Source of the DNA: an uncultured Clostridia bacterium
GTDB lineage: Bacteria; Bacillota; Clostridia; UMGS1883
Length of the DNA stretch: 45,276 nt
Assembly: GCA_947624455.1 (NCBI GenBank)
Contig: CANQKL010000001.1
Coordinates: forward strand, 1-45,276
Direction of reading: 5' to 3'
Made by a program: the position numbers and the translations under genes. The notes beneath the pieces were generated by a model. The model was not told the DNA's origin, made no database searches, and was given only the letters and a program-made list of their open reading frames with translations. Shown here piece by piece: positions 4,785 through 39,645 of this stretch; position 1 is the stretch's first letter; every line of letters begins with the position of its first letter.

Positions 4785-6998
4785 ATGAATAAGGGAAAAC
4801 TGGCAATTAAAGGCCGAATACACGTTATCACGATGCTGATGGCCCTGGCCTTCGCCTTTTTGGCGGGGGTGCTGGCCTGGAGGCAGTTCGTTCAGGGGGC
4901 GGAGCTTAAGGCCGGAGCAGCCGCGCTCCAGACCCGGGATCAGAAGATAGCCTCCAAGCGGGGGAATATTTACGACCGGAACATGAACATTCTCGCCACC
5001 AGCGGCACAGCCGAGAGGATATACCTTAACCCCAAGCTCGTCTCCCAGACTGAGGAGGCCGCCCGGAAGAAAAAGGCCGAGGACGAGGCTAAGGCCGCCA
5101 AGGACGGGGGCAAAGTGGGGGAGTATCCGGACGTGAATCTCAGCGAAAAGATAGTCAACGTCCTGACCACTAACCTGGGAGTGACCGAGGAGTGGGTCAG
5201 GGAGCAGCTTGCAAAGACGGACAGAGTTTCCATCGAGGTCAAGGCCAACGTGGAGAAATCCGTGGCCGACAAGGTTCGCGAGGCCGATCTGACGGGCATT
5301 GAATTTGTGGGCGACACCAAGCGGTACTATCCCAACGGCAATTTGGCCTCCCACGTTTTGGGCTTCTGCGGCAAGGACGGTCAGGGCCTGGAGGGCCTGG
5401 AAAACATATTGGAGGATCAGCTCAGCGGCACAGCCGGGCGAGTCCGCTCCGCCAAGAGCGCGGGCAACGGGGATATGCCGTTCCAGTACGAGACTTACGA
5501 GGCCGCCCAGGACGGCAACAACGTTATCCTCACCATCGACAAGACCATTCAGCAGATAGTGGAGAACCACCTCCAAACCGCCTATGAGGAAAACAAGCTG
5601 GGCAACGGCGCAGCCTCCATCGTCATGAACCCCAAGAACGGGGAGATATACGCCATGGCGGTGGCCCCCAGCTATGACCTGGGCAATTACAGCGTGATCG
5701 AGGATCCCACCCTGCTTGCCCAGGTGGATAAGTTACTGAACGAGCATAACGCCGAGTATCAGGAGGCCCGTCGGCGCATCGAGAACGGCGAGGCCGAAAA
5801 GGGCGACGAGGACATAAAGGAAATGACCTACGACGAGGCCTACGGTCAGATATTGATGAAAATGCGCCGGAACAAGGCCGTGGTGGATTCCTACGAGCCA
5901 GGCTCCACCTTTAAGACGGTGACGGCCTCCGCCGCCCTTGAGGAGGACGTTGTGAAGCTGGACGACACCTTCGTCTGCACCGGCTCCAAGACAGTCAAGG
6001 ACAGGGTGATCCACTGCTCCAAGCGGGAGGGCCACGGCCCCGAGACCTTTGTGGACGGCATAAAGAACTCCTGTAACCCCGTGTTTATGGAGGTGGGGGC
6101 CAGGCTGGGCGCGGAGAAGTTCAACAAGTACTTTCAAGCCTTCGGCCTCACTGAAAAGACGGGCTTCCTGATCCCCGGCGAGACGGCGGGCATCCATTAC
6201 GACCTGGATCAGCTTGGGCCGGTGGAGCTGGCCACCAGCTCCTTCGGTCAGGGCTTCACGGTGACGCCCTTACAGATGGTGCGGGCCGTCAGCGCGGTGG
6301 TCAACGGCGGTTATCTGATGGAACCCCACATCGTCAAGGCCTACACCGACAGCGAGGGGAATATCACCGAAACCGTGGATCCCGTTGTGGTGCGCCAGGT
6401 CATATCCGAACAGACCAGCGCCACCATGCGCGACGTGCTTGAAAGGGTAGTTTCCGAGGGCGGCGGCAGCCAGGCCTATGTGAAGGGCTACCGCATCGGC
6501 GGCAAGACCGGCACCAGCGAAAAGCAGCCCCGTAACAACAACCTGTACGTGGCCTCCTTCGTGGGCTTTGCCCCCGCCGACGACCCGGAAATAGTCTGCC
6601 TGGTCATTCTTGACGAGCCGATGAACGGCGTGCATTACGGCGGCACCATCGCCGCCCCCGTGGCCGGAGCCATAATCGCCGAGACTCTCCAATACCTGGG
6701 CTATGAGCCTCAGTACAGCGACGAGGATGAGGAAGCCGTTCGCATATCCGTTCCCGATATAACCGGCGACGGCTTGGATTCCGCCGCCGCCCGGCTGGAG
6801 GAGCTGGGACTCAGGCTCACGGTCAAGGGCGACGGAAGCTCGGTTCTGCGGCAGATACCTGCCCCCGGCGCTTCCCTCAGAAGCGGCAGCATAGTTATCG
6901 CCTACACCGACGAGGAGGCCGCCGAGGACGCCGACTCGGGCGGAGACTTGGAGGACATAGAGAATTCGGAGGACTCCGGGGAAGAGACAGAGCAATAA
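4785..6998 (+). CDS. Class B penicillin-binding protein (FtsI/PBP2B/SpoVD-like) with one C-terminal PASTA domain
   Basis: ATG 4785 follows GGAAGGGAG. N-terminal TM helix; transpeptidase motifs STFK, SCN and KTGT; PASTA-like ISVPDITG...IVIAYTD; acidic tail. Confidence 0.9.
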   Translation: MNKGKLAIKGRIHVITMLMALAFAFLAGVLAWRQFVQGAELKAGAAALQTRDQKIASKRGNIYDRNMNILATSGTAERIYLNPKLVSQTEEAARKKKAEDEAKAAKDGGKVGEYPDVNLSEKIVNVLTTNLGVTEEWVREQLAKTDRVSIEVKANVEKSVADKVREADLTGIEFVGDTKRYYPNGNLASHVLGFCGKDGQGLEGLENILEDQLSGTAGRVRSAKSAGNGDMPFQYETYEAAQDGNNVILTIDKTIQQIVENHLQTAYEENKLGNGAASIVMNPKNGEIYAMAVAPSYDLGNYSVIEDPTLLAQVDKLLNEHNAEYQEARRRIENGEAEKGDEDIKEMTYDEAYGQILMKMRRNKAVVDSYEPGSTFKTVTASAALEEDVVKLDDTFVCTGSKTVKDRVIHCSKREGHGPETFVDGIKNSCNPVFMEVGARLGAEKFNKYFQAFGLTEKTGFLIPGETAGIHYDLDQLGPVELATSSFGQGFTVTPLQMVRAVSAVVNGGYLMEPHIVKAYTDSEGNITETVDPVVVRQVISEQTSATMRDVLERVVSEGGGSQAYVKGYRIGGKTGTSEKQPRNNNLYVASFVGFAPADDPEIVCLVILDEPMNGVHYGGTIAAPVAGAIIAETLQYLGYEPQYSDEDEEAVRISVPDITGDGLDSAAARLEELGLRLTVKGDGSSVLRQIPAPGASLRSGSIVIAYTDEEAAEDADSGGDLEDIENSEDSGEETEQ

Positions 6999-7017: not shown

Positions 7018-8433
7018 TTGCGGCTTTCAGAAATGTTGAGGCTGCTGAAGATAAGCGCCGCGCCTGTCGCCGACAGGGAGATAAGCGCGGTGGTATGCTC
7101 CACTGATAAGGTCATAAAGGACAGTCTGTTTTTCGCCATAAAAGGCACGAAAACCGACGGACACAGCTTCGCCGCCGAGGCCCTTAAGAAGGGGGCCGCC
7201 GCCGTGATAGGCCAGGAGGAGCTTAAGCTTGAAGGATATTACAGGACGGAAAACTCCCGCCAGGCCCACGCCCTGGCCCAGAGCGAGTTTTACGGCCGCC
7301 CCCAGAGGGAGCTGAAGCTCTGCGGCGTGACCGGCACCAACGGCAAGACCACGGTGACCGCCATGATACGCTCCGCCGCCGTTTCGGCGGGGGTGGGCTG
7401 CGGCCTTATAGGCACGGTGGACACCGTTGCCGGAGGACGGAGCGCCCCCTCCGGCCGAACCACTCCCGCTCCCGAGGAGCTGTACCCGCTGCTGCGGGAA
7501 ATGGCCGACAGCGGCGACCGCCTTTGCGTGATGGAAACGTCCAGCCACGCCCTGGCGTTAGACAGGGTCTGGGGCTTGGAATTTGAGGCCGGAATATTCA
7601 CGAACCTCACCAGGGATCACCTGGACTACCACCGCACCATGGAGGCCTACGCCGCCGCCAAGGGGAAACTGCTGCGGCAAAGCCGTTTTTCGGCGGTGAA
7701 CGCCGACGACCCCTGGGCGGACTACTTTCTCAGCCAGGCCGCCGGTAAAAAGCTGACCTACGGCGTGGAAAAGGGGGAGTTCAGGGGCTGGGACGTCAGC
7801 CTGAGTCCCGAGGGAGTGGAGTTCGTCTGCGAACTGGGGCAGGTGCGGCTGCCGCCGGGAGGCAGGTTCAGCGTGTACAACGCCTTGGCCGCCGCCTGCG
7901 GAGCGTTGGCTCTGGGTCTGCCGGAGAAAAGCGTCCTTCGGGGGCTGAACCTGTTCAAGAGCGTCCCCGGCAGGATGGAAAAGCTCAAAACAAAGGGAAA
8001 ATACCAGGTCTATATAGATTACGCCCACACTCCTGACGGACTGGAAAAGGTCATCAGGGCCTTGCGGGAGATGGGCGGCGGACGGATAATAACCGTCTTT
8101 GGCTGCGGCGGGGACCGGGATCGGAGCAAGCGTCCCCTCATGGGGGAAATAGCCTCGACCCTGTCCGACCTGTGCGTGATAACCAGCGACAACCCCCGCA
8201 CCGAGGAGCCTGCCGCCATAATCGCCGACATACTCAAGGGAGTCAGGGGCGAACATTTGGTCCAGGCGGACCGCAAGGCGGCTATCAGGCTGGCTCTCAG
8301 GGCCGCCGGGCCGGGGGACAGAGTACTCTTAGCCGGAAAGGGCCACGAGACTTACCAGATAGTGGGCGATCAGACCCTGCACATGGACGAGAGGGAGCTG
8401 GTGGCTGAAATAGAGGACGAGAACAACTTCTGA
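7018..8433 (+). CDS. murE: UDP-N-acetylmuramoyl-L-alanyl-D-glutamate--2,6-diaminopimelate ligase
   Basis: TTG start follows AAAGGAG. P-loop GVTGTNGKTT; DNPR motif (SDNPRTEEP), which is typical of meso-DAP-adding MurE. Confidence 0.9.
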   Translation: MRLSEMLRLLKISAAPVADREISAVVCSTDKVIKDSLFFAIKGTKTDGHSFAAEALKKGAAAVIGQEELKLEGYYRTENSRQAHALAQSEFYGRPQRELKLCGVTGTNGKTTVTAMIRSAAVSAGVGCGLIGTVDTVAGGRSAPSGRTTPAPEELYPLLREMADSGDRLCVMETSSHALALDRVWGLEFEAGIFTNLTRDHLDYHRTMEAYAAAKGKLLRQSRFSAVNADDPWADYFLSQAAGKKLTYGVEKGEFRGWDVSLSPEGVEFVCELGQVRLPPGGRFSVYNALAAACGALALGLPEKSVLRGLNLFKSVPGRMEKLKTKGKYQVYIDYAHTPDGLEKVIRALREMGGGRIITVFGCGGDRDRSKRPLMGEIASTLSDLCVITSDNPRTEEPAAIIADILKGVRGEHLVQADRKAAIRLALRAAGPGDRVLLAGKGHETYQIVGDQTLHMDERELVAEIEDENNF

Positions 8434-20723: not shown

Positions 20724-21015
20724 GCTGTGACATGACATACTATGAAGCGGGAGGTTGCCGGCAAAAGGCCGGGTTTTTCCGTGGAGAATGTCCGGCTCAC
20801 GAAGCCGGGCGGCAGTCACTGTACAACATGATAAAGCTTTGCGTGCATCGATTCTTCGATGGTGGGACCCCTTGTTCCCGCGCCCATCTTCATGTAGTAC
20901 CCGGAGCTCAGCGTCCGGGTTTTAGTATGGCTAAGGGTGAAACGCCCGGAGCTATGTACAGGCGTCGCATGAGTCACAAATAACTTATTCTATTATTTTA
21001 TTAGGAGGCACATGT
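20724..21015 (+). promoter_or_regulatory. About 290-nt structured leader of the S10 operon (candidate r-protein autoregulatory leader or ncRNA)
   Basis: Several hairpins, including catcga-ttct-tcgatg and two followed by T-runs (20758-20778, 20899-23). No credible coding ORF. Confidence 0.45.
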
Positions 21016-35347: not shown

Positions 35348-36304
35348 ATGACAGATTTGAGATTTGAAAAGCCTCGCGTGGAGCGGGTCACGCTCAGCGA
35401 GGACGGTTCCTACGGTAAGTACACTGTGTCTCCCCTGCAGAGGGGCTACGGTACGACCCTGGGCAATTCCCTTCGCAGAATGATGCTGTCCTCGCTGGAA
35501 GGCGCGGCCTTCACCTCGATAAAAATTGACGGCATCCAGCACGAGTTTTCCACCATCCCCGGCGTCAAGGAGGATGTCAGCGAGATCGTGCTGAACATCA
35601 AGCAGGTGATAATCAAGCTTCACGGCGACGGCCCCAAGACCGTTTACGTTGAGGCAGAGGGCGCCGGCGAACTCTGTGCCCGCGACATCAAGTGCGACAG
35701 CGACATAGAGATAATCAACGGCGACCTGCATATCGCCACCCTCAATGACGACGCAAAGCTCTACATGGAACTCACGGTGAACAAGGGCCGCGGCTATGAC
35801 AGCGCCGAGAGGAACAAGGCGCTCAGTCAGCCCCTCATCGGCCTCATTCCCGTGGACTCCATTTATACCCCTGTCCACAAGGTGAATTACACTGTCGAGA
35901 ACACCCGTGTGGGACAGAGTACCGACTACGACAAGCTCACTGTGGAGGTCTGGACAAACGGCACCAAGACCGCCGACGAGGCTATCAGCCTGGCGGCCAA
36001 GATCATCAACGATCACATGATGCTCTTCATCCAGCTCACCGACGAGGCGATGAACGTAGAAACCATGGTAGAGAAGGAAGAGACTAAGAAGGAAAAGGTT
36101 CTGGAAATGACAATCGAGGAGCTGGATCTTTCGGTTCGTTCCTACAACTGCCTCAAGCGCGCGGGAATCAACACCGTCGAGGATCTGACCCAGCGCAGAG
36201 AAGAAGAAATGATGAAGGTCCGCAACCTGGGCCGCAAGTCCTTGGACGAGGTTTGCAACAAGCTCCAAAATCTGGGCTTGAGCTTTGCGCCCGAAGAGGA
36301 TTGA
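35348..36304 (+). CDS. rpoA: DNA-directed RNA polymerase subunit alpha
   Basis: N-terminal assembly domain plus C-terminal domain ([23 protein letters not shown]). Confidence 0.97.
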
Positions 36305-36367
36305 CCCCGGACCTGATCCGGCAAAATTCAACAGCGGTCTTTTGACCCGTTATAGGAGGAAATATCA

Positions 36368-36712
36368 ATGGCTGGAACAAGAAAGCTCGGTCGCACCACC
36401 GACCACAGAATGGCTATGCTCCGCGGCATGGTAACGGCTCTCCTGGACAACGGCAAAATCGAAACAACTGTGACCCGGGCAAAGGAGGTTCGCACTCTGG
36501 CTGAGAACATGATAACTCTCGGTAAGAGGGGCGACCTTCACGCGCGCCGTCAGGCCCTTGCGTTTATCACCAAGGAGGACGTGGTCAAGAAGGTATTCGA
36601 CGAGCTGGCTCCCAAGTATGGGGAGCGTCAGGGCGGCTACACGCAGATAATCAAGACCGGCGTGCGCCGGGGCGATAACGCTCCCATGGCTATTATCAAG
36701 CTTGTGGACTGA
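36368..36712 (+). CDS. rplQ: 50S ribosomal protein L17
   Basis: [35 protein letters not shown]. Confidence 0.97.
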
Positions 36713-36728
36713 TATAAAAAAACGCTCT

Positions 36729-36769
36729 CGCGGGAACAACCCGAACGGTTTTTCCCGCGGTGCCTTTTT
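36729..36769 (+). terminator. Hairpin/terminator after rplQ
   Basis: cgcgggaacaacc-cgaa-cggtttttcccgcg, a 13-bp stem with one mismatch. The T5 run is offset by 5 nt. Confidence 0.5.
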
Positions 36770-36771
36770 CT

Positions 36772-36928
36772 GCATCGGGCGCTTTCGCTTACGAAATATT
36801 GGTTTTGTCATGACAAAACCAATATTTCTACCCCGATTATAGTATAAAATCCCGGGTACACGCCCCGGGATTTTATGTTTTTATCGAAAGGGAGTTCCCT
36901 TTCGAGCTTTCCCCATCGTGCATAGGGT
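36772..36928 (+). repeat. Composite multi-hairpin repeat, family C, copy 1 (contains a canonical terminator module)
   Basis: Collinear with 44552-44699. Modules: palindrome 36795-36826; aaaatcccggg-tacacgc-cccgggatttt plus T-run (36847-36882); tcgaaaggga-gt-tccctttcga. Confidence 0.85.
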
Positions 36929-36946
36929 TTGCCAGCAGCCTGATAC

Positions 36947-37013
36947 AATCCCGGGTACACGCCCCGGGATTTTATGTTTTTTATCGAAAGGGGGTTCCCT
37001 TTCGAGCTTCCCT
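36947..37013 (+). repeat. Family C partial copy (tandem duplicate of the terminator and third-hairpin modules)
   Basis: aatcccgggtacacgccccgggattttatgttttttatcgaaagggggttccctttcgagcttccc is nearly identical to 36848-36913. Confidence 0.85.
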
Positions 37014-37030
37014 TATTCTAAAAAAAACTC

Positions 37031-37059
37031 TTTACAAACCGTGGAAAATGTGATAGAAT
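37031..37059 (+). promoter_or_regulatory. Promoter of the LRR-gene leader
   Basis: TTTACA (37031-37036), 17-nt spacer, TGa-TAGAAT (37054-37059). Confidence 0.55.
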
Positions 37060-37063
37060 AGTC

Positions 37064-37241
37064 CTGCGAGACAACTGGATATTATTCTGAGATCACGGTA
37101 GGTGTACGTATATGAAAAAAACGTATGCTTTGGTATTCATTTCTTATCGTGTTTTCAGATGGAGTGAAGTTGTCTCGCAGCAATAAGCCTTGGCAGACGT
37201 TTTTTGTGCGCTGCCCCAACAATACGAGCGGCGCATTTTTT
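37064..37241 (+). promoter_or_regulatory. Structured leader: 13-bp long-range stem enclosing a small ORF, then an intrinsic terminator
   Basis: ctgcgagacaact (37064-37076) pairs perfectly with agttgtctcgcag (37168-37180). Terminator tgcgctgc...gcggcgca plus T6 at 37207-37241. Confidence 0.5.
37112..37186 (+). CDS. Candidate 24-codon leader peptide MKKTYALVFISYRVFRWSEVVSQQ
   Basis: AGGTG lies 7 nt upstream of ATG 37112. The last 6 sense codons lie in the right arm of the 13-bp stem. Confidence 0.3.
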   Translation: MKKTYALVFISYRVFRWSEVVSQQ

Positions 37242-37272
37242 ACGCCGTGACAGGACTGAGGAGGACATTCTT

Positions 37273-39294
37273 ATGAAAAAAGCTTTGACAGCGATAGCGG
37301 CCGCGATTTTGGCTGCTCTGGGCCTGTGCGCCGCCGCCTCGGCGGAGCAGTTCACCGAGGGCTTCTACACCTATACCGTCGAAAACGGCGAGGCCACCAT
37401 AACCAGGATCACCGGCGAACATCCGGACGGGGACGGCAATCTGGTCATTCCCTCGGAGCTGGGCGGCTGTCCGGTGACCGCTATCGGCGACAGCGCCTGC
37501 ACCCACAGGGGCCTTGATCAGGCGGTCAAAACTCACTATGTGCTTCCCGAGACCTTGACCACGGTGGAGCCTTACGCCTTTTACTACAACAAAAATATTA
37601 CCGGCCTTACGGTTCAGAGCAATTTGGAAACTGTGGGGACTCAGGCTTTTGCCGGCGTGTCCGTTGAAGAACTGATAATCGGCGACCAGGTGACCGATTT
37701 CAAACTCGGCCTGCCCCACAAACCGTCGAAAAGGGCCGTCATCGGCAAAAATATCACCGAGATACCCGACAAATTTTTTGAGTACAGCGAGTTTGACGAG
37801 ATAACTTTTCGGGGCGCCCCCGTCAGGATCGGCAGCCGGGCCTTTTACGGCTGTACCGCTCTGAGCCGCCTGGAGCTTGGCGATAAGCTTACATATATTG
37901 GGAGCGAGGCCTTTAGCGGCCTGACCGAGACGGAGATAACCCTCGATTCAAGCAACGTGACCGAAATAGGCTACGACGCCTTTAGGAACTGCGCCAAGCT
38001 GAGCGGCGAGCTTGACCTGAGAGGGCTTGAAAAAATAGAAAGCGGAGTTTTCAAGGGCTGCGCGGGCCTGAGCCGCCTGGAGCTTGGCGATAAGCTGACA
38101 TATATTGGGGACGAGGCCTTTAGCGGCCTGACCGAGACGGAGATAACCCTCGATTCAAGCAACGTGACCGAAATAGGCTACGAGGCTTTTAAAGACTGCG
38201 CCGGGCTGAGCGGCGAGCTTGATCTGAGGGGGCTTGAGAAAGTAGAAAACGGGGCTTTCATGGGCTGCATGGGCTTGAGCCGGGCGGAGCTCGGCTACGG
38301 GCTGACGAGCATAGGCGAGAACGCCTTTTACGGCTGCCTTGCGCTGGAGTCCGCCCATATCCCCGACAGCGCGTACAGCGTTGGGGATATGGCCTTCGCC
38401 CTCTGCCCGAGCCTCAGCGACGTGACGTTGCCCAGGGGCCTCGCGGAAATACCCAGCGGCCTGTTTTTGGGCTGCGCATCCCTCACAGAGATACAGATAC
38501 CCAATACCGTCACGAACATACGCTATATGGCCTTTGCCGGTACGGGTCTGGAGCGCGTGACTCTGCCCTCCGCCCTGGAGAGCCTGAGCAATCTGGTGTT
38601 TTACGGCTGCGACTCCCTGGACTATATCGACATAAAGGGGAACCCCTACTACAGCTCCGAGGACGGCGTCATCTACTACACGTCCGGCGGCAGCAAGGTG
38701 CTGGGCGTATATCCTCCCGGGCGGACAGGCAAGTTCACCGTTCCCGCCGGAGTGGGCTACATCTTTAACGGGGCCTTTGCCACATCGTCCCTCACCAGCC
38801 TGACCGTACCCTCCACCGTCATGAGTATTGGGGAGCTGGCCTTTGCGGACAGCGATATGACGGTTTACGTTTACAGCGGCAGCGTGGCCGAAAATTACCT
38901 TTTGACCTATCCTGACGAGGCGGACTATTTTGTGGTCAACGGCGAGCGTCGGGGGCTGTTCCTGAACAGGTTCAGCGCCGGTTCCGCCGGGGTGAGGGTG
39001 TCGGTTATGAACGACACCTCCCGGGCCATGGACTGCGGTACTCTGTACGTGGCTCAGATGTGCGGCGACCGGGTGCTGAGGGTGGATGCCTTTGACTGCG
39101 GCACGGTCTACCGCCAGGGGAAGCAGGTCTTTAGGGTCACGGATATGGAGCCGGAAGCGGATTCCGCCGCCGTGTACCTTTGGGACGACGTGCTGCGGCC
39201 GCTGACCGACTGTTGCAGGGCTTTGCCCTCGGACGCTTCGGCACAGCAGGCGGGCCAAGGGGAACAGACCCTTGACAAATTTGCCGCCCAGTGA
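37273..39294 (+). CDS. Secreted BspA-type leucine-rich-repeat (LRR_5-like) surface protein
   Basis: ATG 37273 follows GAGGAGG. Signal peptide MKKALTAIAAAILAALGLCAAASA. Many repeats of the form ..IP..VT.IG..AF..C..L.. Confidence 0.8.
   Translation: MKKALTAIAAAILAALGLCAAASAEQFTEGFYTYTVENGEATITRITGEHPDGDGNLVIPSELGGCPVTAIGDSACTHRGLDQAVKTHYVLPETLTTVEPYAFYYNKNITGLTVQSNLETVGTQAFAGVSVEELIIGDQVTDFKLGLPHKPSKRAVIGKNITEIPDKFFEYSEFDEITFRGAPVRIGSRAFYGCTALSRLELGDKLTYIGSEAFSGLTETEITLDSSNVTEIGYDAFRNCAKLSGELDLRGLEKIESGVFKGCAGLSRLELGDKLTYIGDEAFSGLTETEITLDSSNVTEIGYEAFKDCAGLSGELDLRGLEKVENGAFMGCMGLSRAELGYGLTSIGENAFYGCLALESAHIPDSAYSVGDMAFALCPSLSDVTLPRGLAEIPSGLFLGCASLTEIQIPNTVTNIRYMAFAGTGLERVTLPSALESLSNLVFYGCDSLDYIDIKGNPYYSSEDGVIYYTSGGSKVLGVYPPGRTGKFTVPAGVGYIFNGAFATSSLTSLTVPSTVMSIGELAFADSDMTVYVYSGSVAENYLLTYPDEADYFVVNGERRGLFLNRFSAGSAGVRVSVMNDTSRAMDCGTLYVAQMCGDRVLRVDAFDCGTVYRQGKQVFRVTDMEPEADSAAVYLWDDVLRPLTDCCRALPSDASAQQAGQGEQTLDKFAAQ
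37861..38274 (+). repeat. In-frame tandem duplication (2 x 207 nt) inside the LRR gene
   Basis: The first 116 nt of each unit differ at only 3 positions; the remaining 91 nt are about 80% identical. Confidence 0.9.
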
Positions 39295-39300
39295 TATAAT
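39272..39300 (+). promoter_or_regulatory. Consensus promoter of rnpB, embedded in the last codons and stop of the LRR gene
   Basis: TTGACA (39272-39277), 17-nt spacer, TGa-TATAAT (39295-39300). The LRR stop TGA is at 39292-39294. Confidence 0.7.
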
Positions 39301-39302
39301 AG

Positions 39303-39641
<339 letters not shown>

Positions 39642-39645
<4 letters not shown>

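Follow-up and report, generated by a model that had tools for sequence, protein, structure and literature searches.

A predicted terminator-switch leader RNA family upstream of surface-protein genes in gut and rumen Clostridia

The LRR-gene locus and the parts of its leader

The window, i.e., the whole 45,276-nt stretch of DNA analysed here, which derives from an uncultured Clostridia bacterium, contains in order rpsD-rpoA-rplQ, a 560-nt spacer, an LRR gene, rnpB (39308-39644), and, on the opposite strand, guaB. The LRR gene encodes a secreted protein of the BspA type that matches LRR_5 with an E-value of 4e-78, and it is preceded by a compact series of elements with the layout of a transcribed leader. 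These elements, together with the gene that they would control, are listed below by position, strand, and nature.

37031..37059, + strand: sigma-A-type promoter with extended -10 (TTTACA at 37031-37036, 17 nt, TG-n-TAGAAT at 37054-59)
37064..37076, + strand: 5' strand of helix P1, CUGCGAGACAACU (family consensus UUGCGACACAAnU)
37077..37103, + strand: internal loop J12 (GGAUAUU...) and 5' strand of the variable helix P2
37104..37130, + strand: apical hairpin P3 with the A-rich loop AUGAAAAAA
37112..37186, + strand: 24-codon ORF MKKTYALVFISYRVFRWSEVVSQQ, unconserved and apparently incidental
37131..37167, + strand: 3' bulge J32 UUGGUAUUCAUUUCU, 3' strand of P2, and J21
37168..37180, + strand: 3' strand of P1, AGUUGUCUCGCAG, followed by a conserved CAA
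37190..37205, + strand: linker segment C with its U-run, UUGGCAGACGUUUUUU, a strand shared by alternative pairings
37206..37241, + strand: predicted intrinsic terminator, GUGCGCUGCC / 10-nt loop / GAGCGGCGCA / U6
37258..37275, + strand: RBS GAGGAGG (37258-64) and ATG of the LRR gene (37273)
37273..39294, + strand: gene under putative control, coding for a secreted LRR_5 protein of the BspA type (673 aa, signal peptide)

The promoter, which scores 10/12, is the sole promoter-like site within 36300-37600, and transcription is predicted to start at about 37065-37067, that is, on the first bases of P1. The P1 helix, formed by 37064-37076 and 37168-37180, is a perfect one of 13 bp that extends to 18 nt at 89% complementarity, while the terminator arms pair GUGCGCUGCC (37206-15) with GAGCGGCGCA (37226-35) and are followed by U6 at 37236-41. 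The initial annotation, made from the letters of the window, had proposed the TTTACA-17-TAGAAT promoter, the 13-bp helix, the hairpin with its U6 tract, and the GAGGAGG RBS, and all four are present where it placed them. The folding that it recommended gives -73.6 kcal/mol for the 220-nt leader against -54.8 +/- 4.2 kcal/mol for shuffled sequences (z = -4.5), so the leader is more stable than its shuffles.

By BLAST, the leader is single-copy in its own genome, and diverged relatives are found in two other genomes, namely one in G010 (77% identity) and two in G009. The G010 locus is syntenic, with rplQ (96% aa identity), the leader, an LRR gene, and rnpB (94% nt identity) in the same order. 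In the set formed by the window copy, the G010 copy, and the two G009 copies, P1, P2, and the apical hairpin are kept through compensatory changes, e.g., GAGACA/UGUCUC is replaced by GACACA/UGUGUC. Since these helices are conserved in relatives with compensatory changes, the features of the leader amount to more than chance.

The possibility that the leader is itself a dispersed repeat or MITE was rejected, because it is single-copy by BLAST and the multi-copy matches obtained belong to a neighbouring repeat at 36723-36943. This neighbour is a dispersed element of ~220 bp, situated after the rplQ terminator and before the promoter of the leader, with at least nine copies in the same genome (84-96% identity) and many in relatives of the genus. 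A perfect palindrome of 36 nt (36793-36828) lies within it, as do terminator-like hairpins, and a tandem duplication covers its last ~70 nt (36844-36912 and 36943-37012). The syntenic G010 locus is without this element.

The 24-codon open reading frame

The initial annotation interpreted the locus as leader-peptide attenuation or ribosome-stalling control, in which translation of the 24-codon ORF would melt the right arm of P1 and thereby set whether the terminator forms. Such an ORF does exist at 37112-37186, AGGUG lies 8 nt upstream of its start, and its final codons overlap the 3' strand of P1. However, what had been taken for a Shine-Dalgarno sequence is merely this AGGUG inside a paired stem, and both the start codon and the supposed ribosome-binding sequence are buried in P2/P3. 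Moreover, the nearest relatives do not have this ORF: at the corresponding place the leader of the syntenic G010 locus reads ATG AAA AAA ACG TAT GCT TGA and stops after five codons, while both G009 copies are without ATG and have TTG TAA or ACG at that place. Across the wider family described below, an ATG near the apical loop occurs in only 34 of 106 members, in which the resulting ORFs range from 5 to 41 codons and cross the conserved 3' strand of P1 in all three frames; the lengths of the helices vary by non-multiples of three. The peptides encoded in relatives are frame-shifted translations of conserved RNA, and inspection of the MKKTYALVFISYRVFRWSEVVSQQ peptide for regulatory codons or a stalling motif found no codon run.

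Comparison of related leaders, which had been recommended as a check, thus separates two parts of the original proposal, since the stem is kept via compensatory changes and the ORF is not kept. Likewise, the attenuator logic stands as far as the structured leader, the terminator, and the alternative pairings are concerned, and falls in its ribosome and leader-peptide part. The known leader-peptide attenuators (trp, his, and pheA, as well as the translational ermC/cat systems) also carry overlapping alternative hairpins ahead of a terminator, and in the window copy a short ORF likewise overlaps a helix arm. As the ORF is unconserved in presence, length, and frame and has no regulatory codons, control by a leader peptide was ruled out and is regarded as highly improbable. 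The ORF is most simply read as incidental, playing no part in the function of the leader, which corrects a tempting interpretation of the window copy.

A covarying RNA family and the genes that follow it

The RNA structure was assessed on A6, an alignment of 99 sequences mostly from other genera, in which 95.3% of 3870 cells form standard pairs and changes on both sides are found in 41 of the 43 pairs, figures that the fitting of this alignment to the model tends to favour. As controls, sliding the partner by 1-3 columns lowered the paired fraction to 26-53%, none of 500 shuffles reached the observed scores, and the same outcome was obtained on a set of 32 sequences. Within the 99 sequences, P1 is 97% paired with compensatory changes in 11 of 13 pairs, every pair of P2 covaries, as do 8 of 8 pairs in P3, and the terminator helix is 98.8% paired with 10 of 10 pairs covarying. 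Cognate-specific pairing was detected for J12 with J21, too. Sequence conservation of at least 90% falls mostly within P1 (UGC.ACA.A / UUGUGU.GCA.CA), the U-run of the linker, and the base of the terminator; among junction positions, only the A.A of J12, whose family consensus is GAAUAUU, reaches this level in an alignment that is imperfect in the variable loops.

A variant subtype, represented by L081:2771-2970 (+) and L131:3469-3680 (+), combines a consensus P1 with a different, ACGGGCAUCGG-like apical loop and a likewise different terminator of the form GGCGCCUC...GAGGCGUC. In both sequences the linker GGAUAC still matches the 3' strand of P3, GUAUCC, and pairing of the linker segment C with the 5' arm of the terminator was read by eye. 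A tRNA 3'-end (T-box-like) pairing to a UGGU loop was discarded, as the loop is too variable, and so was a K-turn at J12/J21, for which no consistent GA/GA signature was seen on judging by eye.

Perfect 13-bp inverted repeats that flank ~91 bp between a promoter and a gene, and whose sequence is conserved across genera, might also be the recombinase sites of an invertible DNA switch, in which the 91-bp interior would flip and toggle the terminator. The cwpV switch of Clostridioides difficile is organized in this way, with an inverted-repeat-flanked element that lies between the promoter and a surface-protein gene and decides the fate of a leader terminator. However, the interior has the same orientation in 80 of 80 loci selected solely by the P1 arms and a 3-nt tail, i.e., a flipped interior was found in none of them. 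It is on this strand only that the helices often contain G-U pairs, and the model scores 60-185 bits here versus 25-32 bits on the reverse strand. The frequent G-U pairs and the low reverse-strand scores indicate that the structure is one of RNA on this strand, in contrast to the cwpV case, and the inverton was rejected, its probability being practically negligible.

The extent of the family was explored with two covariance models. R1, built from four sequences including the window copy, matches 51 of 64 genomes of the taxonomic family, with several copies in each, and gives 184.6 bits to the window copy, from which the model was partly built. R2, built from A6, finds the leader in 72 of the 87 genomes from the order and in 42 of 150 that were sampled from the class. 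The matches span at least 16 families, and a single genome carries up to 23 copies; the genome samples are MAG-heavy and incomplete, and all these counts refer to the genomes searched. The window copy is a full-length match to R2 (121.2 bits, E 1e-23). Its own genome contains two solid copies, C1:37061-37247 and C22:12109-12305(-), in addition to two weak candidates. The second of the solid copies (G000:C22:12109-12305 (-), the same as L055:1501-1697) scores 90.8 bits with R2, carries a P1 of the consensus sequence, and is followed after 123 nt by a gene for a signal-peptide protein. An exact-pattern scan for the P1 arms (TGCGACACA, 72-100 nt, TGTGTCGCARCA) returned at least 120 matching stretches of DNA; judged by their record titles, the matches listed include Oscillospiraceae, Ruminococcaceae, Acutalibacteraceae, Christensenellaceae, and unclassified Clostridia MAGs, with human, ruminant, rabbit, and horse gut as the sources.

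Whole cassettes of promoter, leader, and terminator are duplicated in tandem before one gene in three of the loci, as follows, and further tandem cassettes appear as adjacent R2 matches in the genome searches at the order and class levels.

L037, - strand: tandem cassette, 1501-1667 and 1744-1913
L116, - strand: tandem cassette, 6731-6897 and 7029-7200
L097, - strand: tandem cassette, 5755-5915 and 5946-6117

Searches of Rfam 15 gave no matching family, either with the window copy (E <= 10) or with ten consensus-like copies (E <= 0.1), and the sub-threshold matches to MIR1509, PyrR, and Termite-leu were dismissed as chance. A literature search by sequence words and topic found no description of this leader family. 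As delineated from sequence, the family comprises leaders of ~160-185 nt in gut and rumen Clostridia and has no entry in Rfam.

The positions of the copies with respect to promoters and genes are highly regular. In nearly all of 109 copies, the extended -10 ends 4-8 nt before P1, which places P1 at the very 5' end of the predicted transcript. In 102 of the 109, an ORF with an RBS follows on the same strand at a median of 19 nt past the model match. The window copy has the same arrangement, its -10 ending at 37059 and P1 starting at 37064, with the U-run ending at 37241 and the RBS at 37258. Of these 102 downstream proteins, 66 begin with a hydrophobic signal or membrane segment. A Pfam search on 95 of the downstream proteins found LRR_5 as the commonest domain (13 proteins), followed by SLH and XRE-type HTH (four each), while other proteins carry GDSL lipase, trypsin-like protease, ChW, dockerin, RHS, and more domains. 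The genes under putative control encode mostly secreted or membrane proteins, and the association of an attenuator-like leader with BspA-type LRR genes, noticed originally at this single locus, proves to be recurrent, with LRR_5 downstream in 13 of 95 cases.

A strong promoter and a terminator of its own, as well as the tandem duplication of whole cassettes, would also be expected of an independent sRNA gene producing a stable RNA of ~175 nt that acts in trans, with downstream expression being incidental. Two observations stand against it. With 102 of 109 copies placed a median of 19 nt before an RBS-preceded ORF on the same strand, no room is left for another promoter, and the variable segments, namely C, P3, and the 5' arm of the terminator (B), match each other within a copy and not across copies. 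This within-copy match, together with the tight coupling to same-strand ORFs, argues for action in cis, and a stand-alone sRNA gene appears very unlikely. A dual role, in cis and as a trans-acting sRNA, is possible.

The family extends to viral DNA, since 72 IMG/VR contigs (L180-L251) carry the P1-arm pattern, 69 of them as full-length model matches and two more as matches cut by the contig end. Three families of unknown function recur downstream of the leader here, i.e., a 173-aa protein, a membrane protein of 176-196 aa with a PASTA domain, and a protein of 342-350 aa, which adjoin phage nuclease-like genes (a label that reflects a reading of the translations). Comparison of these downstream families with PHROGs found no family, and with Pfam just the PASTA domain; one of them has a weak PADLOC match to PD-T4-6 (E 0.0015). 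Examples of these viral leaders are the following.

L195:1715-1890, - strand: leader on a viral contig
L194:5149-5312, - strand: leader on a viral contig
L191:469-640, + strand: leader on a viral contig

Competing helices and a proposed switch

Between P1 and the terminator, the linker offers two alternative pairings. In the window copy, positions 37193-37205 are 92% complementary over 13 nt to the loop and 3' strand of P3 (37116-37128), with a duplex energy of -12.4 kcal/mol, and GGCAGACG can pair with CGCUGCC in the 5' arm of the terminator at -11.3 kcal/mol; P3 itself has -9.7 and the terminator -16.0 kcal/mol. The search for alternative antiterminator pairings that had been suggested for this leader therefore yielded one, C with the terminator 5' arm, plus a competing pairing with P3. 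Both were examined in 98 non-redundant copies by an alignment-free test in which the duplex energies of segments taken from one sequence are set against those of segments drawn from different sequences. The P3 loop/3' strand with C gave a mean rank of 0.18 (p 8e-17; -9.6 kcal/mol for cognate and -6.2 for non-cognate pairs), and C with B a mean rank of 0.32 (p 9e-8; -8.0 and -6.3 kcal/mol, respectively). The positive controls P1, terminator, and P3 had mean ranks of ~0.13 with p of 1e-16 or below, and unrelated segment pairs ranked at ~0.5 without significance. As judged from these energies, both alternative linker pairings, P3:C and C:B, covary. In each of the 98 copies they share 4 or more linker nucleotides (median 9 nt). 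Complementarity is also present between the 3' strand of P1 and the terminator 3' arm, between the 5' strand of P1 and the terminator 5' arm, and between the tail of the P1 3' strand and the linker; these pairings lack a cognate-specific signal because the segments involved hardly vary.

When the transcript ends before the 3' arm of the terminator (B'), the minimum-free-energy structure has the C:B hairpin in 105 of 106 copies, while at full length the terminator is found in 74 of 106. Mean energies are -9.9 kcal/mol for the P3 hairpin, -10.5 for P3:C, -7.7 for the antiterminator hairpin, and -15.4 for the terminator, which suggests that P3 and its competitor are poised and that the terminator wins at equilibrium. 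With its mutually exclusive hairpins and an intrinsic terminator, the leader has the hallmarks of a transcription attenuator, and it appears built to choose between termination and read-through via competing RNA helices. Taken together, we consider it likely that the segment at 37031-37272 is one member of a family of terminator-switch leader RNAs that is widespread and uncatalogued and in which the ORF has no role.

A mechanism can be proposed along the following lines. The 13-bp P1 closes a rod made of the covarying P2 and the apical P3, with C and the U-run following ~10 nt after P1, then the strong terminator with its arms B and B', and the RBS within a further ~20 nt. Four overlapping pairings would compete on this transcript, namely the 5' with the 3' strand of P3, the P3 loop/3' strand with C and the U-run, C with B, and B with B'. 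The second of them, topologically a pseudoknot, would act as anti-antiterminator, the third as antiterminator, and the last as terminator. The P1-P2-P3 rod would fold first, and the emerging U-run would nucleate on the A-rich apical loop, which may serve as a toehold from which C then displaces the 5' strand of P3. Capture of C by the P3 loop/3' strand would leave B free, so that the terminator forms and transcription stops. On the other hand, should P3 remain closed or its loop be blocked, C would pair locally with the emerging B, the terminator would be delayed, and RNA polymerase could read into the LRR gene. Termination is taken as the default state because the terminator-containing states are much more stable, and read-through would then need a trans-acting effector, which we think is more likely a protein or other macromolecule than a small metabolite. 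What the analysis shows is the family, its structure, the covariation of the four helices, and the placement of the copies with respect to promoters and genes. We infer the switching, its default state, and both the existence and the nature of the effector from this model, and the leader could alternatively be a constitutive dimmer without any effector. A regulon-wide switch answering one specific cellular signal (protein, RNA, or ligand) by loop-toehold strand exchange is advanced as a tentative proposal that could well hold, although we would not rely on it.

If the signal were a small molecule or second messenger, P1-P2-P3 would be the aptamer of a riboswitch whose ligand decides between antiterminator and terminator. 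A covarying multi-helix domain followed by a terminator/antiterminator platform, several copies per genome, and tandem cassettes in some genomes agree with such a riboswitch, and the Firmicutes riboswitches gated by a pseudoknot (S-box/SAM-I, preQ1-I, and fluoride) similarly have a covarying helical domain that P1 closes at the 5' end, a pairing between a loop and downstream sequence that competes with the platform, and a terminator just before the RBS. Unlike them, however, the leader has no apparent conserved ligand pocket, no Rfam match even at E <= 10, and no coherent theme, metabolic or otherwise, among its downstream genes, and its P1 of 13 bp is exceptionally long and has a conserved sequence. 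Its junctions and loops are poorly conserved, the apical loop differing between subtypes, and since the highest conservation resides in P1 and the terminator base rather than in loops or junctions, neither a ligand pocket nor a protein site can be identified. Cyclic di-GMP riboswitches (GEMM-I/II) are disfavoured in particular, with no match to RF01051 or RF01786; searches for GGDEF found none in the own genome (91% complete) or in the leader-rich relatives of high genome quality G012 (14 leaders), G017 (10 leaders), G016, and G018 (4-14 leaders each), and G005 and G006 have GGDEF and no leader. A small-molecule riboswitch is thus unlikely in our judgement.

The switch proposed here, i.e., strand exchange biased by an effector, also resembles the PyrR-dependent pyr attenuators of Bacillus, the TRAP/trp system, and BglG/SacY-RAT, in which a promoter-proximal chain of mutually exclusive hairpins takes the same roles of anti-antiterminator, antiterminator, and terminator and several copies exist per genome. 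In those systems a trans-acting factor biases the choice, whereas for this leader such a factor is only proposed. Moreover, the leader has no PyrR binding-loop, RAT, or (G/U)AG-repeat motif, and the sole PyrR match in the region (24 bits against a cut-off of 54) lies on the other strand within the upstream repeat. It also differs from them in that the anti-antiterminator is a long-range pairing of a hairpin loop and 3' strand with the linker, and in a regulon of surface and accessory genes.

A further likeness concerns lambda PR'-tR', which yields the 6S transcript until Q acts, and the RfaH/LoaP systems, all of which have a constitutive promoter and a short terminated leader (predicted in the present case) upstream of accessory or surface genes; the leader described here is found on prophage-like contigs as well. 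In contrast to these systems, no Q-like factor was identified and the choice would be encoded in competing RNA helices. A specialised NusG factor of the LoaP/RfaH type is disfavoured, since a search of the own genome (91% complete) for NusG-family genes (PF02357) gave one match, in G000:C38, and no LoaP-like paralog.

Oscillospirales-type Clostridia of gut and rumen are abundant and mostly uncultured, and to our knowledge almost nothing is known about the control of their surface proteins. One RNA element placed before up to ~23 genes per genome in many families, and before prophage accessory genes as well, would mark a point of control common to adhesin-like LRR proteins, S-layer-homology proteins, lipoproteins, and small membrane proteins. 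If the switch is real, it would co-ordinate much of the accessory surface proteome and prophage moron genes of these uncultured bacteria, and it would represent a new class of riboregulator rather than a passive attenuator. Identifying what flips the leader would provide a handle on host-interaction phenotypes and a new attenuator design, in which an apical-loop toehold competes with the antiterminator, and it would improve the annotation of MAGs by flagging real promoters, starts, and terminators.

Two other structured RNAs were recognised in the window. An S10-Clostridia ribosomal-protein leader lies at 20733-20815 (RF03136, 53.8 bits), and the RNase P RNA downstream of the LRR gene, at 39308-39644, matches RF00010 with 265.8 bits. 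The promoter of rnpB, TTGACA-17-TGATATAAT, overlaps the final codons of the LRR gene (39272-39644 in the window for promoter and RNA together). The first bases of rnpB, AGTTCTGCGAGA, nearly repeat the start of the leader, AGTCCTGCGAGA, a likeness that may be due to chance because the GCGAGA variant of P1 is genus-specific, the family consensus being GCGACA.
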